Part shown: piece after piece, positions 263-48,542 of the stretch | How the letters are laid out: each line of letters begins with the position of its first letter | Position numbering within the stretch: position 1 is the stretch's first letter | NCBI GenBank assembly: GCA_035288965.1 | Contig: DATDYQ010000104.1 | Coordinates: forward strand, 10,089 to 74,088 | Origin: Candidatus Nanoarchaeia archaeon | GTDB lineage: Archaea > Nanobdellota > Nanobdellia > SCGC-AAA011-G17 > JAGVZF01 | Direction of reading: 5' to 3' | Length of the DNA stretch: 64,000 bases | The notes under the pieces: generated by a model | Databases searched by the model: none | What the model was told of the DNA's origin: nothing | Seen by the model: the letters and a program-made list of their open reading frames with translations, nothing else | Position numbers and translations under genes: made by a program

Positions 263-263
263 A

Positions 264-1004
264 TTATTTATATCCACCATTTCTTACAGCCTTTAAATGC
301 CAAGCCGTACTCATTCTCGGTCTTGTTGCCTGACTTCCTATACACACTGCCCAAGCTCCATATTTCATAGCCAAATAACATTGTTCAGGTTCTCTTATTC
401 TACCCTCTGCAATTATTGGAGTGTTATTAAATCTCCCGGTAAGTTTTTTTAAAAGATCAAAATCAGGTTCATATTCATACCATCTATGTACTTTAAGTTT
501 TTTTTCTGTATTTTGAGTGTATCCGGAAAGAGTTGTGCCAACAATATCAACATGCCCAATATTTATTGCTCGGTTAGCTTCTTCAAAAGTAGCTATGTCT
601 GCCATAAATATTTTATCTTGAAACAATTTTTTTGCAGTAAAATATAATTCTAAACTTAACATTCCATTTGGTCTTAATCTATCAGTCATATCTAATGACA
701 CAATATCTGCTCCTGCTTGAAAAATTCTTGAAATGTCGTCTATGCTCTCTGTAATCAATACCCTGTTATCAGCGTACTGTGATTTGGTAATACCAATAAT
801 TATACTTTCAGGATTTAGATATCTTGTTTGTGCAATGTTTTCAATGCCACAAATACGAACAGCACAAGCTCCTGCCTTTAAAACTTCTTTAGCCATTCTT
901 GATATATCTCTTGGTTCATAAAGTTGACTTCCCTTCTCTGGTTCTGCTTGACAAGATACGATTAATCCATCTTTAAGTTGCATTATCTTTTCTTCTTTGT
1001 TCAT
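264..1004 (-). CDS. nanE: N-acetylmannosamine-6-phosphate 2-epimerase (NanE family)
   Basis: Motifs GLIVSCQ, IIGI, GADIV, DxTxRxRP, GTTLSGYT, IAEGR and GAWAV..GS.ATRP align with E. coli NanE along the full length. Confidence 0.85.
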   Translation of the reverse strand: MNKEEKIMQLKDGLIVSCQAEPEKGSQLYEPRDISRMAKEVLKAGACAVRICGIENIAQTRYLNPESIIIGITKSQYADNRVLITESIDDISRIFQAGADIVSLDMTDRLRPNGMLSLELYFTAKKLFQDKIFMADIATFEEANRAINIGHVDIVGTTLSGYTQNTEKKLKVHRWYEYEPDFDLLKKLTGRFNNTPIIAEGRIREPEQCYLAMKYGAWAVCIGSQATRPRMSTAWHLKAVRNGGYK

Positions 1005-2332
1005 CTTTTGTCTATTTCTAATTTATGTTTATCATATTGTGCAACTATTTTTCCATAAGAAAATAAATCCACTTTAGGATTGTTTCTTGGTAATAAAATA
1101 CTTCTTGTTTCAGTATAATCTGTTATAAGAGCTATAGAAATTGGGGCATTTGTCCATCCAGTATACATACTACTAATTCCTCCTTCTACTCTATCTTCTC
1201 CACCCCAAGTTTTTCTTTTAGCATCATAAGATCCAAGCCAAGCGCCATCTGTCTTTGCGAAATCAGATTTATTTTGTATTGAAGTTAAGAACTCTAATGA
1301 TTTTTTTACAGATTCTCTTGCTTTTTTATCATCTGTAAATTGTGTATATGATTGTAAACCTAAAGTAGCCCAATTCTGTCCATAAACTAAATCAGCTATA
1401 TGTTCACCACTACTTCCTTCCCACCATTCACCAGGCCAATGTCCATCTTCACTTTGTCTTGAAATTAAATATTTAGCTACAATATCTAGACCCCTTATTA
1501 CCTTATCATCTTTAGTTACATCGGCAACAGTAGATGCTTCCATCACAAAATATCCACAATTTGAAAGATCATAAGGTTGTTCTCTTTTTCCTTTATCAAA
1601 ATCATCTATAGCTTCCAAATCTTTCTGAAGAGAATTTAATGATTCATCTTTAAACCTTTCATCTTCAGTTAAGCCGTAAACATATGCCAATGCCATAGCT
1701 CTCATTCCCCCCCAATGCGGCATCCCATCCATTTTATTTCTTGCATATTTATCTAATATCTCTCTTTTATCAAGCAAAGATTGAGCTGCAAGAAGTGAAT
1801 AATCTCTTAATTCATCTGAATATCCATTTGCCCATAATGCTAAAGGTAAGATTACAGCCCAGCTATTATCATCAGGCCATTTTTTATCCCAAAAATATTT
1901 ATTATCTTTATAATGTCTTACTGTGGGATTTTTTTCTACGATCATCTTAACTGGAAAAGCATAATCAAAAGTTAATCCATGAGCAAAAAGTCCAAATTCT
2001 GAATGATCTAATCTGTTTTCTTGAAAAGGAGTTTCTTTTATAAATTTTAACAAGTTATCTGATACATATTTATATCCCCTAGAAGGAAATAAATTATCTG
2101 CTAATGCAAATAATGTTGCTGTTTGCAATACACAATCTACCCTTACATATTTAAATAATCCATCTTGTTGAAGTCTATTTCCATTTACAATAGGATGTTC
2201 TCTATCCAGTAGTCTCGCTCTTTCACAAACACCCTCTAAACCATCTTTAAGTAAAACGCCAGAGTTTCTAAACCATCTTAAATTTCTATCTATCACTGCT
2301 AAGTTATCCATATAATTAATTATATCTCCCAA
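1001..2332 (-). CDS. (alpha/alpha)-toroid repeat protein with prenyltransferase/squalene-cyclase-like 'Q..DG.W' repeats. It could be N-acylglucosamine-2-epimerase-like. Function unknown.
   Basis: Repeated SRQSEDGHWPGEWWEGSSGE and KTDGAWLGSY type motifs. The 4-nt overlap with nanE suggests an operon. Confidence 0.4.
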   Translation of the reverse strand: MGDIINYMDNLAVIDRNLRWFRNSGVLLKDGLEGVCERARLLDREHPIVNGNRLQQDGLFKYVRVDCVLQTATLFALADNLFPSRGYKYVSDNLLKFIKETPFQENRLDHSEFGLFAHGLTFDYAFPVKMIVEKNPTVRHYKDNKYFWDKKWPDDNSWAVILPLALWANGYSDELRDYSLLAAQSLLDKREILDKYARNKMDGMPHWGGMRAMALAYVYGLTEDERFKDESLNSLQKDLEAIDDFDKGKREQPYDLSNCGYFVMEASTVADVTKDDKVIRGLDIVAKYLISRQSEDGHWPGEWWEGSSGEHIADLVYGQNWATLGLQSYTQFTDDKKARESVKKSLEFLTSIQNKSDFAKTDGAWLGSYDAKRKTWGGEDRVEGGISSMYTGWTNAPISIALITDYTETRSILLPRNNPKVDLFSYGKIVAQYDKHKLEIDKR

Positions 2333-2382
2333 AAATATATAAGCTTTCCCATACCATTATTAATAATGAGTAAAACTTAAAT

Positions 2383-3726
2383 ATGTCCTCAACTAAACAA
2401 TTGTTAAGAAAAATGAAGGTAAGTCTTGTTTTCCCTAGAATGAAATACCAAACTGGAGATCCTCCCCTAGGTATGGCTTTATTAGCAGGTAATTTAAGAA
2501 AAAATGGATTTGGAGTAGAAATAATAGATACAACTTTTCATCAATCTCTAGATTATGTTAAAGAAAGATTAACCTCGTTTAATCCAGACTGGGTTGCTAT
2601 TTATTCAGACACAATGATGTATAATGATTGTATTAAAATTTCTGAAATGGCAAAAGAAATGGGTAAAAAAGTTATTCTAGGTGGTCCACATCCTACTTTA
2701 AAACCAGAAACTCTAATTGATCATGGAGATTATCTAGTACAGGGAGAGGCAGAAGTTACAATAATAGATGTAATCAATGGAAAATTTAATGGTACAAAGA
2801 TAGTAAAGGGAGTTCCTGCAGATATAGAAACTTTGCCAATGGCAACATATGATTTACTAGAAATGAAGGAATATATTAAGAGATGGCATTTGCTAGATAG
2901 CATTAATCCTGATCTTCATGGCACTAGTATGTTTTCGGCTCGTGGTTGTTCTTTTAGATGCACATTTTGTCAACCAGTTTTAGATAAACTCTTTGGTAGA
3001 TTATTCAGAACAAGAAGTGTTGATAGTATAATTCAAGAACTAAAATATCTAAAAGAAAATGTTGGTATCAAAGCATTTTTCTTCCAAGATGATACATTTA
3101 CATTAAAAAAGATATGGATACGTGAATTTTGTAAAAGAATGATAGATGAAAAACTCGACTTATTGTGGGGTTGTAATTCCCGTATTGATTTAATTGATAA
3201 GGAAATAATGCAAACAATGTACAATGCTGGTCTAAGAGTCATGCACATGGGTCTTGAATCTGGAAGTCAAAGAGTTTTAGATGAAATATATCATAAAGAT
3301 ATCAAATTAGAAGGAATTCCTGAAAAAATAGCTTTGGCAGAAAAAATTGGCATTCATTGTTTATGCTTCTTTATGCTAGGTGCTCCAGGTGAAACAAGAG
3401 AAGAAATCGAAAAAACAATAAAATTTGCTGCCTCTCTTGATGCTACAGAAATAACCGCCACAATTGCAACTCCATTGCCTGGAACTTATCTATATGATGC
3501 AATAAAAGACAAATATAAAATTACTACAGATTTCGATAATTTTGATTATTATAAAAACAGCGCTTTCGAAAATCCTGATGTAAATTTCAAAGAGCTTAAA
3601 TGGTTACAGAAAAAATTATTATTTAAATTTTATACAAATCCAAAAAGGTGGGGTTATATTGGTAAGCATCTCACCCATCCAAGTGGATATGGAAAAATGG
3701 TAAAGAAAATTGCTAGATTCCTATAA
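2383..3726 (+). CDS. B12-binding (class B) radical SAM enzyme
   Basis: N-terminal cobalamin-binding-like domain, then CSFRCTFC (CxxxCxxC) and 'LGLESGS'. Confidence 0.8.
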   Translation: MSSTKQLLRKMKVSLVFPRMKYQTGDPPLGMALLAGNLRKNGFGVEIIDTTFHQSLDYVKERLTSFNPDWVAIYSDTMMYNDCIKISEMAKEMGKKVILGGPHPTLKPETLIDHGDYLVQGEAEVTIIDVINGKFNGTKIVKGVPADIETLPMATYDLLEMKEYIKRWHLLDSINPDLHGTSMFSARGCSFRCTFCQPVLDKLFGRLFRTRSVDSIIQELKYLKENVGIKAFFFQDDTFTLKKIWIREFCKRMIDEKLDLLWGCNSRIDLIDKEIMQTMYNAGLRVMHMGLESGSQRVLDEIYHKDIKLEGIPEKIALAEKIGIHCLCFFMLGAPGETREEIEKTIKFAASLDATEITATIATPLPGTYLYDAIKDKYKITTDFDNFDYYKNSAFENPDVNFKELKWLQKKLLFKFYTNPKRWGYIGKHLTHPSGYGKMVKKIARFL

Positions 3727-5181
3727 TTATCTAATAAACAACCAACTATTGCTTAGCACCCAAGGTACTGTAAATATTATATTTGATATTATCATTATCA
3801 AAAATACTTGCCTCGCTACATCTTTATTTACATAATTTAATAATACATAAGCACTTAAAATTCCATAGATAAATGCAGCCGGAGAAAATAAATCCCAGCC
3901 TAATTTTTCTTGATATTCTATATTCAATGTTATTGTAAATAAGAAAAAGAAGCTTAACATTATCAATAAAAACATAACCACATTATCTTTAAAATTGATT
4001 TTTTTCCTATGTGTTAGAAACAATAAAACAAACAGCAATAAACCCACCCCTGCAGCTAATATATTCTCATTAAAGGAATAAGTAAAATGTTCAAAAGATA
4101 TCATCATATACTTTTCCCATGGAGATTTATATTCAAATAAAGGTAAAAACATAATTCCATCTCCCCCACCAAATGTATTTCCCACTTTTACCTTTTCTAT
4201 ATCAGTAACATGAATCCCGAAACTTGTATATAGATTAAATTCTATATAAACAAAAAATAATATTGTTAAAATAACAAAAGGAGCTATAAATCTGATAAAT
4301 TTTATGTTAAATACTCCTTTAAAAAAATTATTAATATTTAATTTCTTAATTCCAGAATCTACGAAATAAAGGTATAACAACGATGGTAATATCCAAAATG
4401 CAGCCAAATGACTCCAGAAAGATAGCCACATTGCTATTGTAGGATATATTAATTTAGTATTTTTCTTAAGATAATAGATAGAAACTAAGATGTATAAAAA
4501 CATTGTAAATGCTAATCTAGAAGTTCCCTCCCACCATCCAAAGAAAAACTCTATTGTTCCCATACTTCCTATAAACATAAACACAAAAAATCTTTCTATT
4601 TTGTCTTTCCCTAAAAGATTAGATAATAAGAATAATAGAATAATAAAGAAAAACCCTATAATATTCACAAAGAAACTAGTTGATTTAACAGGTTCCCACC
4701 CAGCTATAGGACTTGTTACTTTGTAAAATAAATAATCGCTATAAGAACTTATTGGTGAACTCATAAAAAACCTAGATGCTGGAATCGTAAATGCCTCTTT
4801 AGGTAAAATGCCGGCATCCCCCAAACCATAATTAACGATTTGAAATAAAAAAAATATTATAAAAAACGTAAAAGCAACTAAAATGTATCCCTTAATGTTT
4901 CTTTTTGCAAATAAACTATCTATAATTCTACTGTTTTCCAATCCATTTAATATCTTCTTCTGAATCTTTGGGATTGCAATAATGATTAATATAATCAATC
5001 CAATTAATGTCCATAAAAATTCAATCCAAGCCGGAATTGTTAAATTCAAAAAACCCCAAATTAAATAATTAAATTTACTAACCCCAAATATATTTAATAA
5101 AGTTCCAATTAACTTAATCAAAACAATTATAATTGCTACGGTTAGTACACTATTTTTTAATTTACTCATGTTCCTTTCCAC
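3727..5181 (-). CDS. Polytopic integral membrane protein. It may be a glycan polymerase or a GT-C-like enzyme.
   Basis: At least 12 hydrophobic segments. No WWDYG (AglB) motif. Confidence 0.5.
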   Translation of the reverse strand: MERNMSKLKNSVLTVAIIIVLIKLIGTLLNIFGVSKFNYLIWGFLNLTIPAWIEFLWTLIGLIILIIIAIPKIQKKILNGLENSRIIDSLFAKRNIKGYILVAFTFFIIFFLFQIVNYGLGDAGILPKEAFTIPASRFFMSSPISSYSDYLFYKVTSPIAGWEPVKSTSFFVNIIGFFFIILLFLLSNLLGKDKIERFFVFMFIGSMGTIEFFFGWWEGTSRLAFTMFLYILVSIYYLKKNTKLIYPTIAMWLSFWSHLAAFWILPSLLYLYFVDSGIKKLNINNFFKGVFNIKFIRFIAPFVILTILFFVYIEFNLYTSFGIHVTDIEKVKVGNTFGGGDGIMFLPLFEYKSPWEKYMMISFEHFTYSFNENILAAGVGLLLFVLLFLTHRKKINFKDNVVMFLLIMLSFFFLFTITLNIEYQEKLGWDLFSPAAFIYGILSAYVLLNYVNKDVARQVFLIMIISNIIFTVPWVLSNSWLFIR

Positions 5182-5279
5182 TTAAAAAGAAAATATAAAA
5201 TAATATCAAGCATATTACTAATACAAACAATCCACTCTCATAATTCAAATTCCAATATTTTATTATATAGTTTGTTAGA

Positions 5280-6539
5280 CTACTCATCTTTTATCTTAGT
5301 TGTTTTTATTATTATATCAACAAGCCAGTGTATTTTTACACTTTCTATCTTAAATCCGTGTCTCTCTATATCTTCTAAAAATTTTTTCTTTGAGAATTTC
5401 TCATCATGTGTATCTTTCCACATATCACCTACACTTCTGGTCCATAACCACCAAAACATATTAAATAAGGTATTTTCATTTGGGACAGATATAACCAATG
5501 TTCCATCTTTTCTTAATACCCTATTGATATTGTTTAAAGCTAAATCTCTATCTTCTACATGCTCTAAAACTTCCATTGCTGTTATTGCATCAAAGCTATT
5601 TGGTTTAAATGGTATATCTGTTATACTTCCTCGTTTAAAATTAAATCCTTTGCAATCCTTAACATCCATTCCAATTCCATGACCTAAAAATCTAATAAAA
5701 CTCCCATCTTTCATTGAATTACAAGGCTTTCCGCATCCTATATCCAATAAATCCTTTTTATCAGGTAATAATCTTCTAACTTTTCTATATCTTGCATAAT
5801 GATAGCTTTCTCTTAATCTATTAAACATCGGATTAAATAATTTTTTTCTTATTTTATATAAATACAGATCTCCAAGTTGCGTTACATATTCCATATTTTG
5901 CTTCATTCCAAGTTTACTTTTTCCATCAGTCCTATTCTTAAACATATAGGGAATTTCGATTGCTTTGTTATAATTTCCTTTGGCCAATATTTCCAAGCCA
6001 ATCTTATAGCCTCTAGGAACCAATCTTGTTTCTTCTATAACCTCTCTTTTAAAGAAAAAAAATCCAGACATAGGATCTTTAATGTTTGTAACAGGTTTAG
6101 CTAAAATTGTGGCAATCCTTGATGTTAATCTTCTTTGTTCAGGCCAATTAGTTACTCCTCCTCCTTCTATTAGTCTACTTCCTATTGTAATCTCCGCCTC
6201 ATCATTTAATATCGGTTTAACCATATCAAAAATCTTTTCAGCAGGATGACTTAGATCAGCATCCATAAAACCTATAATCTCTCCCTTAGAAATATCAATC
6301 CCATCCAAAACAGCAGATGCTAATCCTTTCTTATCTTTTCTGCATATTGCATTAATGTTATATTTCTTATCTTTCTTTATTTTATTTACAATATCAAATG
6401 TTCCATCTCTGCTATTATCATCAATTATAACAACCTCAAGTTTAAGCTTGTTTTTTTTAGAAACTAAAAATATATCATCTAATAATCTTCCAATATTATC
6501 ACTCTCATTTAAGGTAGGTATAATCAAAGATATATTCAT
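5280..6539 (-). CDS. Fusion protein with an N-terminal GT2 (dolichyl-phosphate sugar synthase-like) domain and a C-terminal class I SAM methyltransferase domain.
   Basis: N-terminus IIPTLNESDNIGRLL...VIIDDNSRDGT...DADLSHP (DPM1-like). C-terminus LLDIGCGKP...VLEHVED...LRKDGTLVISVPN (MTase motifs I-III). Confidence 0.75.
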   Translation of the reverse strand: MNISLIIPTLNESDNIGRLLDDIFLVSKKNKLKLEVVIIDDNSRDGTFDIVNKIKKDKKYNINAICRKDKKGLASAVLDGIDISKGEIIGFMDADLSHPAEKIFDMVKPILNDEAEITIGSRLIEGGGVTNWPEQRRLTSRIATILAKPVTNIKDPMSGFFFFKREVIEETRLVPRGYKIGLEILAKGNYNKAIEIPYMFKNRTDGKSKLGMKQNMEYVTQLGDLYLYKIRKKLFNPMFNRLRESYHYARYRKVRRLLPDKKDLLDIGCGKPCNSMKDGSFIRFLGHGIGMDVKDCKGFNFKRGSITDIPFKPNSFDAITAMEVLEHVEDRDLALNNINRVLRKDGTLVISVPNENTLFNMFWWLWTRSVGDMWKDTHDEKFSKKKFLEDIERHGFKIESVKIHWLVDIIIKTTKIKDE

Positions 6540-6634
6540 TTTATCCCCTTACTTTAATTAAATTTAAAAAGCTTTCTGTAATATTATAATATAACTGTTG
6601 CATATTATATATCTATAAAAACAAGAATTGGGTT

Positions 6635-7177: not shown

Positions 7178-7252
7178 CGCTAAAATATATATTTCACAAT
7201 AATAAATTTCTCATCAAATGATTTATAATACTTTTTATCATCTATTTTATCA

Positions 7253-35578: not shown

Positions 35579-35642
35579 ATGAAAAAGAAAAAAGTTTATA
35601 TACTAATTTCTCTATATGAAATGTACAAAAAGAGGTTTTGAC

Positions 35643-35659: not shown

Positions 35660-35700
35660 ACCCTATATCAAATAAAAATTAATAATGGGGGTGATTTAAA

Positions 35701-40534: not shown

Positions 40535-42205
40535 TTATCCACTATCATAAACATATATAGTTTGCTCTCTATTTTCACTTTTTAATATTATAGGATAATC
40601 TAATTCATAAGTAGAAATAATATAATCTGGTTTTACTTTTGTTTCATTTAAGTATTCTGAAACAGTATTTTTGTTCATCCAATATCCCATAACTAAAACT
40701 GATCTGTCTTTCTTTCCAAAAACATCTGTTCCTCTTCTAAAATCTTCATCTTCATTTCTTCTATCAAACATAATTAATGAATCTTCCTTGACATTTTTAT
40801 CCATCCATTTTCCCATCCAAGTTTGATCTTGCAAATACCAGTTTTCATAGGAATTATAAATTGCAATAGAACTTCCAAATAAGGTTATCAAAAAGAAAAA
40901 TACCATATAAATCTTTAATATTCTCTCTAATCTATAATTATAAATTTTCATAATCAAAAAAGGAATAAAAAACATGATTATCGCCAAGATTAAGACATTA
41001 TGTTTTGTAATCAATCCTAAAAATATTGTAAAAACTCCGATATAACTTAAAGATGAACTATTTATTGGTAATAAGCTTCTAAATGTTATCGTTGTTGTTA
41101 TCACAACCAAAATGCTCATTAACAATATCAAGATTTTTTTATTTGTTTTCTGTAGAATATTTTTCTCTATACTCACTGCACCTAAAATAATAATTAAAGG
41201 CAAAACTCCTTCTAAATATCTTCCTAAAACTCTTCCATTAAATATATTTTCTTTAGTTAACGGGAAACTACTGCTATGTGTAGCTGCTATAAAAATTAAA
41301 AATAATGAAGATAATATTGTTATTGCATTTAATAAATTTATTTTTTTATCTTGCTGTTTTTTTATATTTATTAAAAATCCTATAAAGAATAATATTCCGC
41401 TAGCTAATAAGATATATCCTACATCAATAATAATCCAATAAAAGAATTGTAACGGTGTAAAATTATTTTGTACAGCTGTTATATTTTCTCCATATCCAAA
41501 TAAACCACTTATAGAAAATCCAAATATGCTTAAATTTCTTATCAGCCAAGGTAAAACAACGATAAATGCAATCAAAAATAGTATAATCTTCTTCTTTATT
41601 TGACTATAATCCTTATCTCTAAAGAGTTTTATAAACAATATTATTACAATTGTTGGAATTAAAGATAAAGCTAATATTCTGGTTAAGTAGCTTAATCCTA
41701 AGAATATCCCTGCTAATACATCCCACCTTATTTTATTATCATTAAAAGATTTGTAAATAAAATAAATAGTAAATAAGAATAAAGGAAAAAATAAATTTTC
41801 ACTTAATATATAAGAAGAAAAAACAAAAAATGGCGGCATTATTCCGATTAAACTAGCAATCAAAAAAGATTTCTTCTTGTCAAAAAATTCCTTAGCAATC
41901 AACCAAGCTGGAAATATTATTAAACTAGATAATATCGCATTAATTATCTTAAAAATAAAATAGATTATTTCCATATTTTTAAAAATATAAGATATTGAAA
42001 TTACAATCGGATACAAGGGAGGATAAAGATAACTTGCTCTTCCATCAACAGTAAAACTTCCATCATGAAAAAAACTTCTAGCCATCTTCATATAATGGTA
42101 ATCATCAGCAAACGTGCTCGGAGATAAAACAAAAAAAGCAATAGCTATCTTTAACAAAACTAAAACAATAAATACAATCATTAACTTTTTAAAAAACCTA
42201 TCCAT
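40535..42205 (-). CDS. Membrane GT-C glycosyltransferase (ArnT/PMT-like)
   Basis: Multi-TM protein with the PF13231-like pattern 'YLYPPLYPIVISI...'. Confidence 0.5.
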   Translation of the reverse strand: MDRFFKKLMIVFIVLVLLKIAIAFFVLSPSTFADDYHYMKMARSFFHDGSFTVDGRASYLYPPLYPIVISISYIFKNMEIIYFIFKIINAILSSLIIFPAWLIAKEFFDKKKSFLIASLIGIMPPFFVFSSYILSENLFFPLFLFTIYFIYKSFNDNKIRWDVLAGIFLGLSYLTRILALSLIPTIVIILFIKLFRDKDYSQIKKKIILFLIAFIVVLPWLIRNLSIFGFSISGLFGYGENITAVQNNFTPLQFFYWIIIDVGYILLASGILFFIGFLINIKKQQDKKINLLNAITILSSLFLIFIAATHSSSFPLTKENIFNGRVLGRYLEGVLPLIIILGAVSIEKNILQKTNKKILILLMSILVVITTTITFRSLLPINSSSLSYIGVFTIFLGLITKHNVLILAIIMFFIPFLIMKIYNYRLERILKIYMVFFFLITLFGSSIAIYNSYENWYLQDQTWMGKWMDKNVKEDSLIMFDRRNEDEDFRRGTDVFGKKDRSVLVMGYWMNKNTVSEYLNETKVKPDYIISTYELDYPIILKSENREQTIYVYDSG

Positions 42206-42235: not shown

Positions 42236-42874
42236 CTATTTGTAAGCTTTCTCGCCAGTTTTATACTGTAAATCATCAACTTTTTTAATTATTTTTGCAG
42301 GATTCCCGACAACTACTGTATTTTCAGGAACATCTTTTGTTACCACGCTCCCCGCCCCAACTAAAGCATTTTTTCCTATATTTAATCCAGGAAGTAAAGT
42401 AGAATTTGCTCCTATCTTTGCATCTTCTCCGATAATAGATCCAGCCAATTTATCTTTTGCTAATTCTGATAATGGAAATGGTGCATTTGTTAAAACAACA
42501 TTTGGACCAATCCAACTTCCTTTTTTTAGTTCACAATATTCAGGAACAAAAGCTTGAGTATGTATTCTTACATTATCTTCAATCTTAACATGATGCTCAA
42601 CCACACTTAAAGTTCCTATAGCAACATTATTCCCAATTTCATTTTCTTCCCTTATATTTACTTTGTTTCCTGTTTGAAAATTATCTCCTATTTTATTTCC
42701 AGAATAGATTACTGTATGACTCCTTATATAGCAATTATTTCCAAGAATAGTTTTTAATTCACCTTCTTTCTTTCCTCTAGGTGCTGCTCCAATAATAACA
42801 TAATCTTCTATAACACAATTGTCCCCCATAGTAACATTTTCATGTATTCTTGCTGTAGGTGCTATTTTATTCAT
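42236..42874 (-). CDS. Hexapeptide-repeat (left-handed beta-helix) sugar N-acetyltransferase (WbpD/PglD/NeuD-like)
   Basis: Repeated [LIV]G-x4 hexapeptides throughout. Confidence 0.75.
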
Positions 42875-42927
42875 AATAAGTAATAAATTCCAAAAGCTTA
42901 TATAACTTTCTCCTTATGTTTTTATAG

Positions 42928-44037
42928 GTGATAGTAATGATAGAAAAAGAGATACCACAAGTTGATTTGAAAAGGCAATATCATTCTATTAAAAAAGAAA
43001 TAGATGAAGCTATATTTAACATAATTGAAAACACTTCTTTTATTAATGGAAAAGCAGTACAAGAATTTGAAGAGGATTTTGCCAAATTTTGTAATGCTAA
43101 ATATTGTATTGGTGTTAGTTCAGGAACAAGTGCAGTAGAAGTTGCATTACAAGCATCTGGAATTAAAGCAGGAGATGAAGTTATCACAGTTCCTAATACA
43201 TTTATTGCTACAACAGAAGCAATAACAAGATTGGGAGCTAAATTTAAATTTGTTGATATTGATGAAAAAACTTATACTATAGATATTAATCAAATTGAAA
43301 AGGCAATAACATCAAAAACAAAAGCGATCTTACCTGTTCAATTATATGGACAATCAAGTGAAATGGATAAAATAAAAGAGATAGCTGAAATTTTTAATTT
43401 AAAAGTTATAGAAGATTGCGCACAGGCTCATGGAGCTGAATATAATAATAAAAGATTGCCTTATTCTTTAGTTGGAACCTTTAGTTTTTTCCCAGCTAAA
43501 AATCTTGGAAGTTTTGGTGATGCAGGAGCTGTTGTTACAAATGATGAAGAGATAGCAAATAAAGCTAGATTATTAAAAGATCATGGTAGAACAGGAAAGT
43601 ATGTTCATGAAATTGAAGGTTATAATCATAGATTAGATACATTACAAGCAGCAATATTAAAAGTTAAGTTAAAGAAATTGGATGAATGGATTGAGAAAAG
43701 AAGAGAAAATGTTGCATTATATAATGAATTATTAAGTGATAATATAATAAAACCGATAGAAAGAGAAAACTCTAAGCATGTTTATTATGTTTATACGATA
43801 AGGGTAAAAAATAGAGATGGATTACAAAAATATTTGAAAGAAAATAAGATATCTTCTCAGATTTATTATCCTATACCATTACATTTACAACCAGCTTATT
43901 CTCATCTTGGTTATAAAAAAGGAGATTTTCCAGTAACAGAAAAAGTTTGTGATGAAATCTTATCATTACCTTTATTTCCCGAGTTAACTAAAGAAGAGAT
44001 TGAATATATTAGTGAGAAAGTTAATTCATTTATTTAA
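42928..44037 (+). CDS. DegT/DnrJ/EryC1-family PLP-dependent sugar aminotransferase
   Basis: 'DLKRQYHSIKKEIDEAI', 'GVSSGTSAVEVAL' and 'EDCAQAHGA'. Confidence 0.85.
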   Translation: MIVMIEKEIPQVDLKRQYHSIKKEIDEAIFNIIENTSFINGKAVQEFEEDFAKFCNAKYCIGVSSGTSAVEVALQASGIKAGDEVITVPNTFIATTEAITRLGAKFKFVDIDEKTYTIDINQIEKAITSKTKAILPVQLYGQSSEMDKIKEIAEIFNLKVIEDCAQAHGAEYNNKRLPYSLVGTFSFFPAKNLGSFGDAGAVVTNDEEIANKARLLKDHGRTGKYVHEIEGYNHRLDTLQAAILKVKLKKLDEWIEKRRENVALYNELLSDNIIKPIERENSKHVYYVYTIRVKNRDGLQKYLKENKISSQIYYPIPLHLQPAYSHLGYKKGDFPVTEKVCDEILSLPLFPELTKEEIEYISEKVNSFI

Positions 44038-44476
44038 TCATATCTATAAATTTTTTTCTATATATCTTAATATCTTCGTTATTTATTTTTGAAATAAAAT
44101 TAATTAATTTACTATTAAAAATTTCAGCTTTTCTTATGGTATCTTTTACATCTTCTTTAGTTACCACAAAATCAACATAATATTGTTTGTCTATTCTTTC
44201 TTTTTTAGCATCAAAAATTATAGAAGCAGAATGATTTTCAGATTTAATCCCAATTTTAAATAATAACGCAGTTAATAGATGATACATGCTATAATAGGCA
44301 AGTCCGACAGATTCTTCAAATTTATCATTATTCAGAAGAATTTTTGCAGAGATAAGATTGCTTTCAGATTTTATAATATAAGATTGTTTTAATTCTTCAC
44401 TTGATTCAACTAATTCTAATTTTCCTTGCTTACGAAGTTTCTTCAAAAAATTTATTTTTTTCATAATATGCTTCAA
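44030..44476 (-). CDS. HEPN-domain protein (toxin-like partner of the adjacent nucleotidyltransferase)
   Basis: Helical HEPN-like N-terminal region. It overlaps the upstream MNT gene by about 47 nt. Confidence 0.5.
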   Translation of the reverse strand: MKHIMKKINFLKKLRKQGKLELVESSEELKQSYIIKSESNLISAKILLNNDKFEESVGLAYYSMYHLLTALLFKIGIKSENHSASIIFDAKKERIDKQYYVDFVVTKEDVKDTIRKAEIFNSKLINFISKINNEDIKIYRKKFIDMIK

Positions 44477-44987
44477 TGCCTTTTATTACTACATGATTTT
44501 TTTCTATTTCTTTTATTAACAAATTAGATTTATCATATTTTCCTATTTTCACACTTAATTTTGAATCTATTGAATTAATATCTTCCCTTATTTTTTTGCT
44601 ATCTGTTTCAATATAAACATCAATATCGCTATTTACTTTAGCAATTTCCTTTGCATATGAACCAAATAAGATAGCAAGTTTTATATCTTTATTGGTTTGA
44701 ATTTTTTCTATTATTCTCCTTAAGCTTGGATATTTTTTTAATAATTTATTTAACTTATAATTTTCAGCAGAAAAAGCAAAACTTTTAGCTTCTATTGTTT
44801 TCTTTAAAAAATATTTATTGTTTTTTCCTTCTCTTTTGTAGTCTACAATATTTTCTTTATATAATTCTTTTATCTTTCTTACTATTATCATATGATTAGT
44901 ATTTAATCTTCTAGCAAGCTCCCTTATATGATATTCTGCATTAAGTAATTCATTTACGATTTCTAATTTGTAACTCTTTTGTTCCAT
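44430..44987 (-). CDS. Minimal nucleotidyltransferase (MNT) with an N-terminal wHTH
   Basis: 'LAILFGSYAKEIAKVNSDIDVYIETD' (GS-x9-DxD). Confidence 0.65.
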   Translation of the reverse strand: MEQKSYKLEIVNELLNAEYHIRELARRLNTNHMIIVRKIKELYKENIVDYKREGKNNKYFLKKTIEAKSFAFSAENYKLNKLLKKYPSLRRIIEKIQTNKDIKLAILFGSYAKEIAKVNSDIDVYIETDSKKIREDINSIDSKLSVKIGKYDKSNLLIKEIEKNHVVIKGIEAYYEKNKFFEETS

Positions 44988-45052
44988 ATGTAATATTTAT
45001 GTTACAATAGTATTTAAAGCTTTCGATTAACTATTTTGTTGAGAAGGTTAAT

Positions 45053-46012
45053 TTATTTTTGTAACTTCGCATTAGCTTGCATATCAAACAACATTGCAAA
45101 CAAGAAAAATTGCAATCCCGTTATTATAAACAAAGCAGATAATATTGTCTCATTTGTTGGTGCAGTTGATATAATTGCAAAATATAATGCCCTTATTCCT
45201 AAAATAATTCCTATTGGGATAAATAGTATTCCGAAGAAATAAAAAAATACCAAGGGATGGAATTCTTGAAATAAATATTTATTTTTTAAACGCCAAAAAA
45301 ATCTTTTAATCAATAAAGGGGCCATCCTCCTTATATATTTTCCAATTTTGATCTGTGATTGTCTTTCTCCAGGCAAATAAATTGCTCTTCTAGGAACATC
45401 TTTTACTCTTAAATTATATCTATTAAAAACAACTAAAAAATCAGAAACATATCCATAGCCCCCCCAAACTTCTTTCCAGTCTATTAAATCAATTGCTTTT
45501 TTTGATATAGCAGTATATCCATCTTGGGTATCAAATATTCCCCAATAACCAGAAGCAAATTTTGTCATGAAAGATAACATGGAATTTCCGAAAAATCTTT
45601 TTCCAGGCATTACATTAAAAGCACTGGCATTAACTCCAAGAAATCTATTCCCTTTAACATAATCTGCTTCATCTTTAACAAAAGGTTCAAGAAAATTAGG
45701 TAAATCAGCTAAATCCATTTGATTATCTCCACCTATAACAACGACTGCATCATATCCATATCTTGAAGCTTTTTGATATCCTGCTATAATTCCATGTCCC
45801 GGACCTCTAGGATTTTTTTTATCATGAAACTTTACTAACTCCACCCTCTTATCTTTCCAGTTTTTTACAATTTCGGCTGTTTTATCTGTAGAAGCATCAT
45901 CCATAACATAAACTTTATCTATTGTTTTAGGAACATTTTCTAAAGTTGGAACTATTAATCTTTCTTCATTATGTGCTGGAATTACTAATGCTACTTTTAG
46001 TTTTTTGTACAT
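45053..46012 (-). CDS. GT2 dolichyl-phosphate sugar synthase-like glycosyltransferase with C-terminal TM helices
   Basis: 'VALVIPAHNEERLIVPTLENV...VMDDASTDKT' plus two C-terminal TM segments. Confidence 0.75.
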   Translation of the reverse strand: MYKKLKVALVIPAHNEERLIVPTLENVPKTIDKVYVMDDASTDKTAEIVKNWKDKRVELVKFHDKKNPRGPGHGIIAGYQKASRYGYDAVVVIGGDNQMDLADLPNFLEPFVKDEADYVKGNRFLGVNASAFNVMPGKRFFGNSMLSFMTKFASGYWGIFDTQDGYTAISKKAIDLIDWKEVWGGYGYVSDFLVVFNRYNLRVKDVPRRAIYLPGERQSQIKIGKYIRRMAPLLIKRFFWRLKNKYLFQEFHPLVFFYFFGILFIPIGIILGIRALYFAIISTAPTNETILSALFIITGLQFFLFAMLFDMQANAKLQK

Positions 46013-46074
46013 TAATAATAAAATATGAGAAAAATTTATAAATGTAACTAATTAAACTATTAATTAAAAATAAA

Positions 46075-46527
46075 TTAGATTTTATGTTCTTTAAAAGTTC
46101 CATGCGGAGCTTCACGAATAAAATTCAAGATTGCTGTTTGTAAAGAGCTTCCATTTATTATTTTTAAATTATTATAAAGATTTGTTCTAAGTTCCCTACC
46201 AATTTCCCTTAAAAATCCAGGTCTAATATCTTCATAACCTGGCCAATAAACAAAAAATCCATTTCCATCTAATTTTAACGTAGCATATGGATCAAGAGAA
46301 TGAAAAGGTATGCCAATCATTCTGTCACCTTGTGAGTATTTACTTTCGCATGCCAATCTAGCTAAAGCTAAAATCTCTTTGTCATTATTAACTAATTCTA
46401 CTAATCCTGTAACTTCTTCAATACCATGAAGCCCTTTTTCTCTATGTAAATCAACTCTTTCATATCTATCATAAACATTTTTTAACATAGGTAAAACTTC
46501 TCTTTCAGTTGTAACTTCAGTTGTCAT
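46075..46527 (-). CDS. Hypothetical protein
   Basis: ORF only. Confidence 0.4.
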   Translation of the reverse strand: MTTEVTTEREVLPMLKNVYDRYERVDLHREKGLHGIEEVTGLVELVNNDKEILALARLACESKYSQGDRMIGIPFHSLDPYATLKLDGNGFFVYWPGYEDIRPGFLREIGRELRTNLYNNLKIINGSSLQTAILNFIREAPHGTFKEHKI

Positions 46528-46615
46528 TTTATACCTCCAAAATATATAATAAATAATATAATAAAAAAGCTTAAAAAGCTATCTAAATAAAAAAATAAAA
46601 GTTAAATCAAATAAA

Positions 46616-47536
46616 TTATTGTTTTTTTGCTAACTTTTCATATGCAACAGTATAGCTAGAAACATTTACTCCATGTTTAGCAAAATGGTCTAACAATTTT
46701 TTATGGAAATCTAAGTTTGGGTCATAAACATCTATAGCTTGTGGATGTAAACAAAGTCCCAAGAAAACTTCTTTTCCAGTATCTTCTGCTAGTTCTTTTC
46801 CTTGAATCATTAAACTATTAAAATATTCAAATATTCCTGCCGCAGTCGTAGGATAACCAGCTGTTCCAATAGTTTTTGATTTACCTGTGAATGCTGTATC
46901 TTGCCACCCGTGACTCGGAATTTCTAGTAAATTTCCTAGTTCTGTAGAATAAAATCTTGGTTGTCTTGGTTTTCCATCTTCAACCAATGGCGGTTCAATT
47001 CCCCAATCTTTACTTCTTAAATCAGAACTAATATATTTTACTCCTGCATTTAATAAAGCATTAACAACTTCTTCATTATCTAAACCACCTGCATAACCCA
47101 ATGGAGCTCTTACACCGATAACAGCCCTACCAAATATTCTATAAATTAAACTGGAAGCTTTTCTTACATCTTGTTCTATTTGAGACGGTAGCATTGGATC
47201 TTTATCTGGACGAGTTGCAATTCTTCTAAATGGCACATGGGAATAAGAATGTTGTTGTATGTCTACCAATGGATCATCAGAAGAAAATATTGTTCTTAGT
47301 TCAGTATTCCCCATAAAATGTTCTGAAGTGCTCTCTAAGAAACTTCCCAAAATAAAAAATGTTCTACCAAATCCTGAGTACTCTTCAAATAAAGAATTTA
47401 ATTTATCTACAGTCCTTAAAGTTACTTCTCTCTCTCTAGCCCCTTCTTCTGTAGAAGCTTTATCTCCGTAAGGTGATTCTGTATCATATCCGAATAATAA
47501 ATTTACATTTGTCATTTTTATTCCCCTATTGTCCAT
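46616..47536 (-). CDS. Polysaccharide deacetylase (CE4 / NodB-homology domain-like)
   Basis: 'FGYDTESPYG' and the 'QQHSYSH' His motif. Confidence 0.55.
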   Translation of the reverse strand: MDNRGIKMTNVNLLFGYDTESPYGDKASTEEGAREREVTLRTVDKLNSLFEEYSGFGRTFFILGSFLESTSEHFMGNTELRTIFSSDDPLVDIQQHSYSHVPFRRIATRPDKDPMLPSQIEQDVRKASSLIYRIFGRAVIGVRAPLGYAGGLDNEEVVNALLNAGVKYISSDLRSKDWGIEPPLVEDGKPRQPRFYSTELGNLLEIPSHGWQDTAFTGKSKTIGTAGYPTTAAGIFEYFNSLMIQGKELAEDTGKEVFLGLCLHPQAIDVYDPNLDFHKKLLDHFAKHGVNVSSYTVAYEKLAKKQ

Positions 47537-48542
47537 TCAAAACAATTTCTTTCCCACTAACAGCACTTTTATTAGCAGCTTCAATTATTCTCACACTTTC
47601 TTTTGCATCTTCTCCGATAACATCAGCTCTTCTTCTTTTCTTTAAAACATCAATAACATTATTTACAACCATTTCATGATTGCTTGGATTATGTGCTTCA
47701 GGAATTTCAGGAACAATTTGCCCTTCAACATCAAACAATTCCATTTTATTCAGATAAGTTCCTCCAATCTTAATATGTCCCTTTGTTCCAAAAACAGATA
47801 TTGATCCTTCAAGATTTTTATTGTAAATATTTGTTGTGTAATTCATAGTTCCCAGAATTCCTTTCTTAAATTTCATTATCATTGTTCCAGTATCTTCTGT
47901 TTCAATTTCATGATTAAAATTTTCCATTTTTGCATAAACACTTTTCACAGGACCAAACAACCAATACATCAAATCAATAAAATGAGAAGCTAAAGTAAAT
48001 AAAGCTCCGCCATCTAATCCTTTAGTTCCACGCCAAGGTTCACTTGTATAATATTCAACATTTCTGTTCCATAAAACTTTAGCATCAACTAAATATATTT
48101 TTCCTAATTTTTTCTTATCTAATAATTCTTTTAATTTCATTACCGGAGGATTATATCTATTTTGCTTGACAACAAATAAATTAACTCCACTTCTTCTGCA
48201 ACTTTCCATCATCCTATCACAATCTTTTATTGAAAGTGCCATTGGTTTTTCACATAATACATGTTTAAAATTATTTGCTGCTTCCATAGTATGTTTAGCA
48301 TGCAATCCTGATGGAGTGCATATTGTTATAACATCAATATTTCCTTGTTTTAACATTTCATCATAATTAGAAAAAGCTTTACAATTAAACTTATCAGCCA
48401 AAGATCTTGCTCTCTCTTTATTTACATCACTAACTCCAATTAGTTCAGCTTCCGGATTATTAAAAAGAATGTTAGCGTGTTTTTCACCAACTTTCCCGCA
48501 TCCAACAATTCCAAATGTCACCTTTTCCATAATTGTCACCAT
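47526..48542 (-). CDS. Gfo/Idh/MocA-family NAD-dependent sugar oxidoreductase (WbpB-like)
   Basis: 'FGIVGCGKVGEKHA' Rossmann start and 'EKPMAL'. Confidence 0.85.
   Translation of the reverse strand: MVTIMEKVTFGIVGCGKVGEKHANILFNNPEAELIGVSDVNKERARSLADKFNCKAFSNYDEMLKQGNIDVITICTPSGLHAKHTMEAANNFKHVLCEKPMALSIKDCDRMMESCRRSGVNLFVVKQNRYNPPVMKLKELLDKKKLGKIYLVDAKVLWNRNVEYYTSEPWRGTKGLDGGALFTLASHFIDLMYWLFGPVKSVYAKMENFNHEIETEDTGTMIMKFKKGILGTMNYTTNIYNKNLEGSISVFGTKGHIKIGGTYLNKMELFDVEGQIVPEIPEAHNPSNHEMVVNNVIDVLKKRRRADVIGEDAKESVRIIEAANKSAVSGKEIVLNGQ

Follow-up and report, generated by a model that had tools for sequence, protein, structure and literature searches.

An aglB-anchored N-glycosylation supercluster predicted in a groundwater DPANN archaeon

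What kind of surface glycan is made by a run of DNA in which nearly every gene looks glycan-related, and to what would that glycan be attached? The question is raised by a contig of Candidatus Nanoarchaeia archaeon (GenBank assembly GCA_035288965.1, contig DATDYQ010000104.1), of which positions 10,089 to 74,088, a stretch of 64,000 nucleotides hereafter called the window, were analysed; coordinates are relative to the window, and negative values lie to the left of its position 1. A first-pass annotation, made from the letters alone, had described a very large surface-glycan island of about 48 kb and 45 genes between 264 and 48542, and had reported that the window holds no oligosaccharyltransferase. 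The island was borne out by Pfam and NCBIfam hidden Markov models (HMMs), with 43 large open reading frames (ORFs) and 3 small ones also called by other gene callers, and its actual extent proved greater. We put the probability at about three in four that it forms an N-glycosylation supercluster which is anchored by aglB and extends over at least 58 kb (-9.7 kb to 48.5 kb). All ORFs of at least 100 amino acids (aa) were listed, 57 non-nested ones were scanned with Pfam, and the informative ones were also compared with NCBIfam; gaps in pathways refer to about 74 kb of visible sequence, namely the window and about 10 kb upstream of it.

The oligosaccharyltransferase claim is correct as far as the window goes, in that WWDYG occurs in none of its frames, but an AglB that carries the motif ends just 2.0 kb to the left. 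Outside the window on that side lie, in order, genes for a Wzx-like flippase (425 aa), a PF00953 initiating transferase of MraY/WecA/AglH type (328 aa) and AglB (868 aa), and beyond AglB, leftward, for a PMT_2-like protein (449 aa), an AglJ-like glycosyltransferase of family 2 (GT2; 235 aa), a methyltransferase (217 aa), WecB and another polytopic protein. The first of these genes reaches into the window:

2-262, plus strand: the last 86 codons of the gene for a second Wzx-like flippase (425 aa, Polysacc_synt), which starts left of the window; their translation matches the C-terminus of the ORF at 10743-12020 on contig L017

The aglB gene occupies about -4649 to -2043 on the plus strand (L017 13048-15654). 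Its product matches PF02516 at E<=1e-5 in five assemblies, shows WWDYG at residue 582, DPD (DxD) at residue 52 and DKE (DxE) at residue 167, and has about 15 hydrophobic segments in residues 16-540; the match to the archaeo_STT3 model TIGR04154 (E=4.2e-33, 114.7 bits) is below the 450-bit subfamily cut-off, and a regular-expression search of the protein returned no strict DK or MI motif. The upstream Epimerase_2 protein is clearly a non-hydrolysing WecB (TIGR00236, 424 bits; cut-off 210). The order AglB, PF00953 enzyme, Wzx is found again on an unrelated contig (L022), a recurrence that points to a conserved core. In the island this trio stands directly left of nanE, and 13 glycosyltransferase (GT) proteins are encoded within the next 48 kb. 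Clustering around aglB is a known archaeal arrangement, of which the locus is a very large but recognisable example.

Given its metagenomic source, and the presence of several families typical of bacteria (GT9, an HldE-like kinase, BFO_1060 relatives and a NodU-like enzyme), the locus might be suspected of being an assembly chimera of unrelated glycan genes or of deriving from contaminating bacteria. In five assemblies (L017-L021), however, window 1-11004 is linked at 99.9-100% identity to the aglB region, and window 2147-50474 is represented, in the same order and at 99.3-100% identity, on contigs L001-L006 and L012-L016. Jointly, these independent assemblies, which come from different samples and assemblers, span about -13.9 kb to +53.7 kb, and since they present the same gene order the locus is not chimeric, nor is it split as the first-pass annotation had allowed for. 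Gene order is also kept in a relative of about 91% nucleotide identity (L007), GC content is low throughout (24-35%), and archaeal hallmarks lie on the same DNA (AglB, four ORFs with class III signal peptides, an intron-containing tRNA-Ser and an S_layer_C protein), all of which makes a chimeric or contaminant origin hardly credible. Island genes were matched on groundwater metagenome contigs (an ANAN16 scaffold, ENA and Logan assemblies, and a JGI contig), their homologues are named Woesearchaeota, Nanoarchaeia and Nanoarchaeota, and the relative just mentioned, found by a scan of a genome collection at 95% amino-acid identity, belongs to a metagenome-assembled genome titled Candidatus Woesearchaeota archaeon. 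The host is a groundwater Woesearchaeota/Nanoarchaeia (DPANN) archaeon population. A Methanococcales host was rejected on the strength of the homologues and the 95% relative, although the S-layer-like protein matches the Methanococcales-type family PF05124.

Fourteen GT domains lie between 264 and 48542: seven GT2, one GT4, two GT9, two PMT_2-type GT-C and two TagB/TagF-like GT-B. They belong to 13 of 43 consecutive proteins, a density that excludes chance. The earlier tally of at least 12 enzymes, with seven GT2, one GT4 and two GT9 domains, agrees with this count, whereas the four folds to which they had been assigned reduce to three (GT-A, GT-B and GT-C), GT4 and GT9 sharing GT-B. Further content comprises two NeuB and two CTP_transf_3 domains, NanE, a PfkB kinase, a GFO/MocA oxidoreductase, a DegT aminotransferase and a hexapeptide acetyltransferase; for tailoring and transport there are a NodU/CmcH carbamoyltransferase, a CE4 protein, four class I methyltransferase domains, Wzx and EamA, and there are four radical S-adenosylmethionine (SAM) enzymes, three of them B12-binding and one of the SPASM type. 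NanE (264-1004), a HAD phosphatase, an APH-type kinase, a DHDPS/NanA-family aldolase and a HEPN/nucleotidyltransferase pair are additions to the first-pass inventory; Wzx, EamA and the four radical-SAM enzymes were already in it and are confirmed by Pfam, as are its four to five methyltransferases, now four class I domains (PF08241). The GT, NeuB and HldE-like domains, whose HMM confirmation had been set beforehand as a check, were recovered, the last of them below its equivalog cut-off. Paralogue pairs among the GT2, methyltransferase, GT-C and radical-SAM proteins share 22-36% identity over full-length alignments, and short methyltransferase segments of 46-63 residues alone reach 40-50%; at such distances the paralogues are old, and recent duplication was rejected as the source of the repeated sets. 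The glycosyltransferases other than those of the nonulosonic-acid module, together with the membrane proteins, are as follows (TM, transmembrane segments; Dol-P, dolichyl phosphate).

3727-5181, minus strand: polytopic membrane protein, at least 8 TM by hydropathy, candidate GT-C or polymerase-like
5280-6539, minus strand: AglJ/Dol-P-hexose-synthase-like GT2 fused to a class I methyltransferase (PF00535, PF08241; best NCBIfam match AglJ, TIGR04182, 61 bits)
7253-8017, plus strand: polyprenyl-phosphate glycosyltransferase-like GT2, PgfS/ArnC-like by NCBIfam (PF00535, 89 bits)
8014-9060, plus strand: GT9 of the heptosyltransferase family (PF01075, 101.9 bits; heptosyltransferase I/II/III models 77-94 bits, below cut-offs)
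9580-11094, minus strand: GT-C membrane glycosyltransferase of PMT_2/ArnT type (PF13231, 75.5 bits; about 9 TM by hydropathy)
12147-14036, minus strand: GT9-GT2 fusion (PF01075, residues 65-300; PF00535, residues 339-500)
14068-15192, minus strand: GT4 glycosyltransferase (PF00534, PF13439)
15194-16066, minus strand: rhamnosyltransferase-like GT2 (PF00535; TIGR01556, 70.7 bits)
16101-16970, minus strand: EamA-family transporter (PF00892, 90 bits)
30545-32047, plus strand: Wzx-type flippase (PF01943, PF13440; 14 TM by hydropathy)
32042-33592, minus strand: 10-TM membrane protein, DUF6798 (PF20604, 33.5 bits; no NCBIfam match), candidate GT-C
38087-38806, plus strand: AglJ/dolichyl-phosphate hexose transferase-like GT2 (PF00535; TIGR04182, 78.8 bits; NF041391, 55 bits)
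40535-42205, minus strand: GT-C membrane glycosyltransferase of PMT_2 type (PF13231, 54.9 bits; about 12 TM by hydropathy)
45053-46012, minus strand: AglJ/polyprenyl-phosphate sugar synthase-like GT2 with 2 C-terminal TM (PF00535; TIGR04182, 88 bits; PpgS, 46 bits)

The GT2s at 5280, 7253, 38087 and 45053 and the GT2 upstream of the window find their best NCBIfam matches in AglJ, Dol-P-hexose transferase, PpgS, PgfS or ArnC. These polyprenyl-phosphate sugar synthase-like enzymes, four in the window and one upstream, stand beside three PMT_2-type GT-C proteins, two in the window and one upstream, which are accompanied by up to three further unassigned polytopic proteins; in all three places, methyltransferase genes adjoin the Dol-P-sugar synthase-like GT2s. 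Where two to four membrane GT-C enzymes had been counted in the window, the two PMT_2 proteins are secure and the other two (3727-5181, without a family, and 32042-33592, DUF6798) are candidates only. The former has no Pfam match and just four homologues, all from DPANN archaea; aligned with the PMT_2 set by hhalign it reaches a probability of 44%, and its AlphaFold2 model (pLDDT 52) is unusable.

In the Agl system of Haloferax volcanii, AglJ and AglD are Dol-P-sugar synthases, AglR is a flippase, AglS is a GT-C enzyme and AglB is the oligosaccharyltransferase, and a sugar is added on the outer face of the membrane. The island is similar in its aglB-clustered genes, its DPM1-like GT2s (four best matched by AglJ or Dol-P-hexose transferase), its Wzx-like flippase and its PMT_2-like GT-C proteins, and differs in that the matches lie far below equivalog cut-offs; with at least three GT-C enzymes and four to five Dol-P-sugar-synthase-like GT2s, many more outside additions than in Haloferax are to be expected. 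By analogy, priming of a dolichyl phosphate carrier by the PF00953 enzyme would be followed by extension of the glycan on the cytoplasmic face by soluble GT2, GT4 and GT9 enzymes, Wzx-type proteins would flip it, and AglB would transfer it to N-X-S/T sequons of two anchored surface proteins encoded at the far end of the island. In parallel, the four to five AglJ/DPM1-like GT2s would load single sugars onto dolichyl phosphate, and the PMT_2-type GT-C enzymes, both those in the window and the one upstream, would add these Dol-P sugars on the outer face.

The proposed acceptors and their neighbours begin immediately downstream of the last island gene:

48693-50594, plus strand: surface protein with signal peptide and C-terminal TM anchor, 25 sequons, no Pfam match, likely N-glycan acceptor
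50622-51170, plus strand: small membrane-anchored protein, 4 sequons, not enriched
51187-53751, plus strand: surface protein with signal peptide and C-terminal TM anchor, 48 sequons, likely main N-glycan acceptor
56705-59059, minus strand: S-layer-like protein, Methanococcales-type S_layer_C (PF05124, 38.4 bits; cut-off 23.9)

That sequon-saturated surface proteins follow the island had been noticed on first reading, and the statistics agree. The 25 sequons of the protein at 48693-50594 compare with 12.7 +/- 3.1 in shuffled sequences, and the 48 of the protein at 51187-53751 with 18.0 +/- 3.6; none of 2000 shuffles reached the observed number in either case. The excess amounts to 2 to 2.7 times the shuffled expectation, and the island enzymes carry a mean of 0.46 sequons per 100 aa. 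Both anchored proteins are, on these counts, likely N-glycan acceptors. The S-layer-like and pilin-like proteins, which had been proposed for the same role, fare less well: the S_layer_C domain is indeed present, but its protein has 10 sequons where 9.1 are expected, and the six pilin-like or N-terminally anchored ORFs (53891-55086 and 59323-61640, minus strand), four of them with (K/R)GQ class III signal motifs, contain no sequons at all where composition predicts about 10, so they would make poor N-glycan acceptors.

Which sugars, then, would such a glycan contain? A nonulosonic acid is the best indicated, and the genes concerned are these (CMP, cytidine monophosphate; Pse and Leg, pseudaminic and legionaminic acid):

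264-1004, minus strand: NanE, N-acetylmannosamine-6-phosphate (ManNAc-6-phosphate) 2-epimerase (PF04131, 155 bits; NF002231, 210.6 bits, above the 189-bit cut-off)
19785-21548, plus strand: NeuB-SAF-cytidylyltransferase fusion, nonulosonic-acid synthase and CMP-sugar synthetase (PF03102, 165.7 bits; PF08666; PF02348, 61.3 bits); best matches in the PDB SpsE (1vli) and 6oew
22390-23535, minus strand: GT-B protein, distant relative of BFO_1060, the TagB-like Tannerella Pse/Leg transferase (NF046086, 46.7 bits; cut-off 200), HP motif at residue 238
23575-25359, minus strand: GT-B protein of 594 aa, BFO_1060-like candidate CMP-nonulosonate transferase (NF046086, 105.3 bits, cut-off 200; TIGR04396, 74.6 bits, below cut-off), HP motif at residue 456
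25372-26442, minus strand: stand-alone NeuB nonulosonic-acid synthase (PF03102, 294 bits; in the PDB, SpsE 242, PseI 212 and NmNeuB 192 bits)
26435-27826, minus strand: GT2 fused to a PseF-like CMP-sugar synthetase, CTP_transf_3 (PF00535, 114 bits; PF02348, 36.1 bits)
27857-28933, minus strand: radical-SAM/SPASM enzyme (PF04055, PF13186)
28941-30395, minus strand: B12-binding radical-SAM enzyme 2 (PF02310, PF04055; BchE and HpnJ models about 205 bits, below cut-off)

The two NeuB and two CMP-sugar cytidylyltransferase domains of the first-pass annotation stand. In both NeuB proteins the NeuB and SAF domains exceed the Pfam gathering scores (PF03102, 294 and 166 bits; cut-off 22) and the metal-binding SDH and EKH motifs align with those of NmNeuB, and both CTP_transf_3 domains lie above the PF02348 cut-off of 22.6 bits. 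Models for specific products score lower than their cut-offs (NeuB_NnaB 360 and 195 bits against 399.65; PseI 313 and 178 against 340.25; PseF 73.5 bits over residues 244-442 of the protein at 26435-27826 against 205.7), and the solved structure nearest to both synthases is the Bacillus subtilis Leg synthase SpsE. As the two NeuB domains are just 33% identical to each other, a second nonulosonic acid is likely. The island has four domain fusions (GT2-methyltransferase, GT9-GT2, NeuB-SAF-cytidylyltransferase and GT2-cytidylyltransferase), which had been remarked upon as unusual; the one between NeuB and cytidylyltransferase is in fact common: full-length fusions of this kind make up about 95 of the best 150 representatives at 50% clustering.

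The two GT-B proteins had been called TagF-like. This is tenable at the level of the superfamily, since homologues of the 594-aa protein carry PF04464 (TagF), PF05159 (KpsC/S) and PF07388 (polysialyltransferase), but PF04464 itself is absent from both at E<=1e-3, and at relaxed thresholds only faint PF04464 (E=0.016, 14.6 bits) and PF07388 matches appear on 22390-23535. BFO_1060 is the sole NCBIfam family matched by both, HP and DXD motifs are present and D/E-D/E-G is absent, and the genes lie immediately downstream of those for NeuB and the CMP-synthetase; a PDB sequence search returned no match for the 594-aa protein. In Tannerella forsythia, Tanf_01245 and TFUB4_00887 transfer Pse/Leg derivatives, as established by knock-out and complementation, and genes of the BFO_1060 family encode a TagB-superfamily domain and sit just downstream of genes for the CMP-nonulosonic acid (PMC5420450). 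The island pair shares the GT-B fold, the TagB-like character, the HP motif and the position directly downstream of CMP-nonulosonate genes; it departs from the Tannerella enzymes, which act on an O-glycan in a bacterium, in its archaeal origin, its scores (105 and 47 bits, below 200), the missing D/E-D/E-G and, in one protein, about 350 extra N-terminal residues. The two are distant relatives of BFO_1060, not members of the family, and candidates for CMP-nonulosonate transferase-like enzymes, which appears a better description of them than TagF-like. Archaeal nonulosonic-acid transferases were reported to be unidentified as of 2018 (PMC6137143).

Read from 30395 to 22390 on the minus strand, the operon encodes in turn a B12 radical-SAM enzyme, the SPASM radical-SAM enzyme, the GT2-CMP-synthetase fusion, NeuB and the two GT-B proteins, and would make, activate, possibly remodel and transfer a nonulosonic (sialic-acid-like) sugar, while the fused NeuB-CMP-synthetase would make the second nonulosonic acid. 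The SPASM gene lies 31 bp from the GT2-cytidylyltransferase fusion gene. Its product reaches 93.7 bits, short of the 250-bit cut-off, against the C-terminal part of the spiro-SPASM model TIGR04321, and the cytidylyltransferase domain of the NeuB fusion gives a marginal match (22.6 bits, E 3.6e-5) to the N-terminal, cytidylyltransferase-like half of that model. A link between cytidylyltransferase and radical-SAM/SPASM functions is weakly hinted at by these matches. Taken together, these genes make a nonulosonic acid in the glycan a well-supported prediction.

Both synthases have Asp in place of the catalytic E134 of NmNeuB (D135 in 25372-26442, D119 in 19785-21548), whereas SpsE and PseI keep Glu. 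A large phylogenetic study (PMC8208679) reports the change in archaeal and eukaryotic synthases and speculates that the use of ManNAc-6-phosphate explains it. In this regard, NanE, which probably supplies ManNAc-6-phosphate as precursor, and a cassette that varies between strains become relevant:

17055-19748: strain-variable cassette by Pfam, with a HAD-IA phosphatase (17055-17726, minus strand), an APH-family kinase (17806-18870, plus strand) and a DHDPS/NanA-family aldolase (18861-19748, plus strand)

Phosphorylated intermediates are used by the animal sialic-acid route (NANS, NANP, CMAS) and by the Bacteroides Kdn-9-P pathway. The island resembles the animal route in having a NanE for ManNAc-6-phosphate, a HAD phosphatase, CMP-synthetase domains and, at the position of NmNeuB E134, the Asp that eukaryotic NANS and other archaeal NeuBs also carry, and an animal-like route through phosphorylated intermediates is accordingly a possibility; unlike in that route, the HAD phosphatase belongs to a cassette missing from a close relative. 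The 91%-identical L007 lacks window 16971-19750 through a clean indel (at its 9922-9966) and keeps the flanking EamA and NeuB-fusion genes.

These same genes admit an opposite interpretation, in which NanE, the aldolase, the APH kinase and the HAD phosphatase form a nan-like set for sialic-acid scavenging by a host-dependent DPANN cell and do not supply a precursor to NeuB. The classical role of NanE and of NanA-family enzymes is catabolic, the aldolase scores much the same against N-acetylneuraminate lyases and DapA (it is roughly equally distant from DapA, NanA and KDG aldolases), and the cassette is accessory and adjoined by an EamA transporter. Against such a role, NanE lies 17 kb from the aldolase and kinase and is translationally coupled to an orphan (alpha/alpha)6 gene within glycosyltransferase contexts in two genomes; the kinase, for which a PDB sequence search gave no match, is of the APH type and not a ROK NanK; the cassette stands head-to-head with the NeuB-CMP-synthetase gene; and Pfam scans of the window found neither NagA nor NagB. 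Scavenging is on balance improbable.

Returning to synthesis, a more far-reaching scheme for this genome-reduced archaeon has NanE feed ManNAc-6-phosphate to the Asp-134 NeuBs, the HAD phosphatase and the fused CMP-synthetase act in turn on the product, radical-SAM enzymes remodel the sugar (as hinted at by the cytidylyltransferase/SPASM pairing and the three B12-dependent enzymes), and the first archaeal relatives of the Tannerella transferases cap AglB-dependent N-glycans with it. As a whole this chain is rather unlikely to hold in every link, but if true it would give the cell surface proteins that bear sialic-acid caps, vary between strains and could act in the recognition of a host or a virus.

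Variation between strains extends beyond the cassette. Between the NeuB fusion gene and a 160-aa ORF, 21562-21893 is an indel hot spot:

21586-22393, plus strand: two small ORFs at the hot spot, 87 aa and 160 aa, no Pfam match

At this site a co-occurring strain (L013, 1878-2438) has an extra 186-aa ORF, and L007 (11778-12555) has 777 bp where the window has 331 bp. Similarity to L007 stops altogether at window 30526 (L007 21187), just before Wzx, and the flank available from the relative ends 570 bp later; the right half of the island may be a different module there. Strain-specific N-glycosylation clusters have been described in haloarchaea (2024 archaeal N-glycosylation review), and a cassette that is present in one and absent from the other of two 91%-identical relatives fits that pattern.

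The remaining sugar-modifying genes point to further amino sugars and decorations:

2383-3726, plus strand: B12-binding (class B) radical-SAM enzyme 1 (PF02310, PF04055; best NCBIfam models HpnJ, BchE and AprD4 family, below cut-off)
6635-7177, plus strand: class I SAM methyltransferase (PF08241, 27.7 bits; cut-off 21.2)
9039-9590, plus strand: class I SAM methyltransferase (PF08241, 31.8 bits)
11164-12174, minus strand: PfkB-family sugar kinase, closest to HldE domain I (PF00294; TIGR02198, 267 bits, cut-off 345; ribokinase next, 73 bits)
35842-37455, plus strand: B12-binding radical-SAM enzyme 3 (PF02310, PF04055; NCBIfam)
37458-38087, plus strand: class I SAM methyltransferase (PF08241, 52 bits)
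38798-40474, minus strand: two-domain NodU/CmcH-type O-carbamoyltransferase (PF16861, 231 bits; PF02543, 168 bits)
42236-42874, minus strand: hexapeptide-repeat sugar N-acetyltransferase of NeuD/PglB/VioB type (PF00132; TIGR03570, 107.6 bits, cut-off 160.8)
42928-44037, plus strand: DegT/DnrJ-family sugar aminotransferase (PF01041, 405 bits; best NCBIfam match PseC, 275 bits, below cut-off)
46616-47536, minus strand: CE4 polysaccharide deacetylase-family protein (PF01522, 28.9 bits, above the 23.1-bit cut-off)
47526-48542, minus strand: GFO/IDH/MocA oxidoreductase (PF01408, PF22725; best match archaeal UDP-GlcNAc 3-dehydrogenase NF040723, 171 bits, cut-off 450; inositol dehydrogenase, 153 bits)

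The amino-sugar module at 42236-48542 combines the GFO/MocA oxidoreductase, the DegT aminotransferase, a NeuD/PglD-type acetyltransferase, the CE4 protein and the 2-TM AglJ-like GT2, with a GT-C gene adjoining. Routes to 2,3-diacetamido sugars are known from Pseudomonas (WbpB, WbpE, WbpD) and from Methanococcus maripaludis (MMP0352, MMP0351, MMP0350), and a WbpB/WbpE/WbpD-like trio had been proposed here. All three enzyme classes, a dehydrogenase-like GFO/MocA protein, DegT and a hexapeptide acetyltransferase, are indeed found within 6 kb; their scores are less specific, the dehydrogenase matching its namesake at 171 bits and inositol dehydrogenase at 153, the aminotransferase matching PseC best and the acetyltransferase NeuD, PglB/PglD or VioB. 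Unlike the Wbp system, moreover, the module has no UDP-GlcNAc 6-dehydrogenase, and the CE4 protein and 2-TM GT2 next to a GT-C recall ArnB, ArnC, ArnD and ArnT. It plausibly fits a WbpB/E/D- or MMP0352-type 3-acetamido route and equally an ArnB/C/D/T logic, between which the scores do not discriminate; in either case the trio and the CE4 protein would make an extra acetamido or amino sugar.

A heptose, likewise proposed earlier, is a weak prediction. The kinase is best matched by HldE domain I, as the claim of a heptose kinase would have it, but at 267 bits it falls short of the 345-bit cut-off. With its two GT9 domains and this kinase the island resembles the bacterial pathway for ADP-heptose and lipopolysaccharide (LPS) core (GmhA, HldE, GmhB, HldD, WaaC/WaaF), from which it differs in scores below cut-off and in an incomplete route: Pfam and NCBIfam scans of the window and 10 kb upstream found none of the pathway's SIS domain, CTP_transf_like domain and epimerase. 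To our knowledge, archaea have no lipid A.

Decoration is easier to envisage. The carbamoyltransferase and the CE4 protein are confirmed at the scores given above, and the three class B radical-SAM enzymes have HpnJ, BchE, PhpK and AprD4-family models as best matches, all below cut-off; methyltransferases, carbamoyltransferase and B12 radical-SAM enzymes would decorate the sugars, and carbamoyl and methyl groups on the glycan are plausible. The glycan first envisaged thus retains its nonulosonic acid, plausibly its carbamoyl and methyl groups and 2,3-diacetamido sugar, and less securely its heptose. More than one final glycan is likely to be made.

Do all these genes serve N-glycosylation? Several observations weigh against so unified a reading. 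Two flippases and EamA, two NeuBs and the GT9s suggest several products, some perhaps not linked to protein, and the PMT_2 proteins could equally be protein O-glycosyltransferases. For most equivalog models the score falls short of the curated cut-off (NeuB/PseI, PseF, BFO_1060, HldE domain I, UDP-GlcNAc 3-dehydrogenase, PseC). A Leg/Pse-type route would have neither 4,6-dehydratase nor hydrolysing 2-epimerase in the visible sequence, and the heptose route, over the same 74 kb, has neither GmhA, adenylyltransferase, GmhB-type phosphatase nor HldD. The assertion that almost every ORF is glycan-related holds for most of them; about six of the 43, however, have no assignable family, and two more form a toxin-antitoxin pair. 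The left boundary was not reached beyond about -9.7 kb, two exact-pattern scans of JGI metagenome contigs with the far-end sequence of L017 having given no match, and the products and chemistry of the island are predictions from its genes.

In the resulting alternative, only the left core (AglB, the PF00953 enzyme, Wzx and neighbours) would serve N-glycosylation, and the rest would make a Wzx-dependent polysaccharide or lipoglycan, be it an LPS-core-like GT9/heptose module or a capsule-like polymer of nonulosonic acid, or else PMT_2-dependent O-glycans. Such a mosaic would account for the two Wzx-type flippases beside EamA, the two NeuBs at 33% identity and the two CMP-synthetase domains; in bacteria, GT9 and an HldE-like kinase are typical signs of LPS core synthesis, domains for capsule (PF05159) and polysialyltransferase (PF07388) occur in homologues of the 594-aa GT-B protein, protein O-mannosyltransferases too fall under PF13231, and the point at which similarity to L007 ends, right before Wzx at 30526, suggests modular exchange. 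On the other side, Pfam scans of the window ORFs found no Wzy polymerase, Wzz, ABC exporter or KpsS/C family, the whole stretch is continuous with aglB and ends at the hyper-sequon proteins, and archaeal N-glycan pathways do use a second flippase and GT-C enzymes on the outside, as with AglR and AglS of Haloferax. A mosaic, which is partly compatible with an aglB-anchored supercluster, is a real possibility short of an even chance, and the supercluster remains the reading that we prefer.

The closest precedent for that supercluster is a region of about 67 kb in Halorubrum sp. PV6 that holds aglB, glycosyltransferase genes and a legionaminic-acid pathway (PMC6137143; Zaretsky et al., 2018). Both loci bring together aglB, many glycosyltransferases and a NeuB/NeuA-type pathway, and the product in PV6 is an N-linked glycan on the surface glycoprotein. 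PV6, however, is a haloarchaeon whose glycan has been proven chemically and whose LegB/C/H/G/I/F set is full, whereas the island belongs to a DPANN archaeon and its glycan is a prediction. The island shows NanE in place of a 4,6-dehydratase and a hydrolysing epimerase, neither of which is seen, and it has two NeuBs, one of them fused to a CMP-synthetase; candidate nonulosonic-acid transferases, GT9s, a carbamoyltransferase and three B12 radical-SAM enzymes come in addition.

The genomes of DPANN archaea are very small, and a life attached to other cells is presumed for the group, which gives the chemistry of the cell surface a central place in its biology. Should the genome measure about 1 Mb, a usual size for such archaea, the island would occupy about 5% or more of it. 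We found no delineated DPANN N-glycosylation pathway, and the 2024 review mentions DPANN just in listing superphyla. The locus is notable for its host, for its size relative to a presumably small genome and for its variability between strains, and among its contents for the two NeuBs with NanE, the candidate nonulosonic-acid transferases, the GT9s, the carbamoyltransferase and the four radical-SAM enzymes; it offers a rich gene set, not a new principle. It also constitutes a concrete, clonable set of genes comprising AglB and its likely acceptors, two Asp-134 NeuBs next to NanE and the candidate transferases, and these NeuBs would permit a direct test of the published ManNAc-6-phosphate hypothesis for archaeal synthases.

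The other genes of the island are the orphan coupled to nanE, several small ORFs and a pair unrelated to glycans:

1001-2332, minus strand: orphan (alpha/alpha)6-barrel protein, candidate sugar 2-epimerase/isomerase or glycoside-hydrolase-like, 4-nt overlap with the nanE start codon
33652-35823, plus strand: exported beta-helix-like protein of 321 aa (weak PF13229, E=0.0016), then three small membrane or other ORFs (83, 237 and 40 aa)
44030-44987, minus strand: HEPN/minimal nucleotidyltransferase toxin-antitoxin pair, not a glycan gene (PF05168, PF18765, PF01909)
46075-46527, minus strand: 150-aa ORF, no Pfam match, called in other assemblies

The orphan family has 10 full-length homologues among 5.8e9 proteins and an invariant WxDDNxW motif. 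Its pairing with NanE recurs on the contig of a 60%-identical homologue (L023 2795-4883), among GT2, GT4, Epimerase_2 and PMT_2 genes, and a further homologue (L022 8001-9284) lies within an aglB cluster; the family is always found among glycosylation genes. The exported protein (33652-34617, plus strand) has a Cys-rich C-terminus, and the genes of 33652-35823 are called in other assemblies too.

Toxin-antitoxin-type genes are scattered across the surface-structure region: beyond the HEPN pair, a second nucleotidyltransferase follows an ORF without a family at 55209-56463 (plus strand), and a PIN-like DUF5615 protein is encoded at 61681-62049 (minus strand). No tandem repeats of note were seen in the window, and tRNA is its sole Rfam family. 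The one instance is a tRNA-Ser(UGA) at 53756-53854 (minus strand) with a 13-nt intron, which was recognised by RF00005 (47.8 bits) and by ARAGORN with its intron option, default ARAGORN having missed it.

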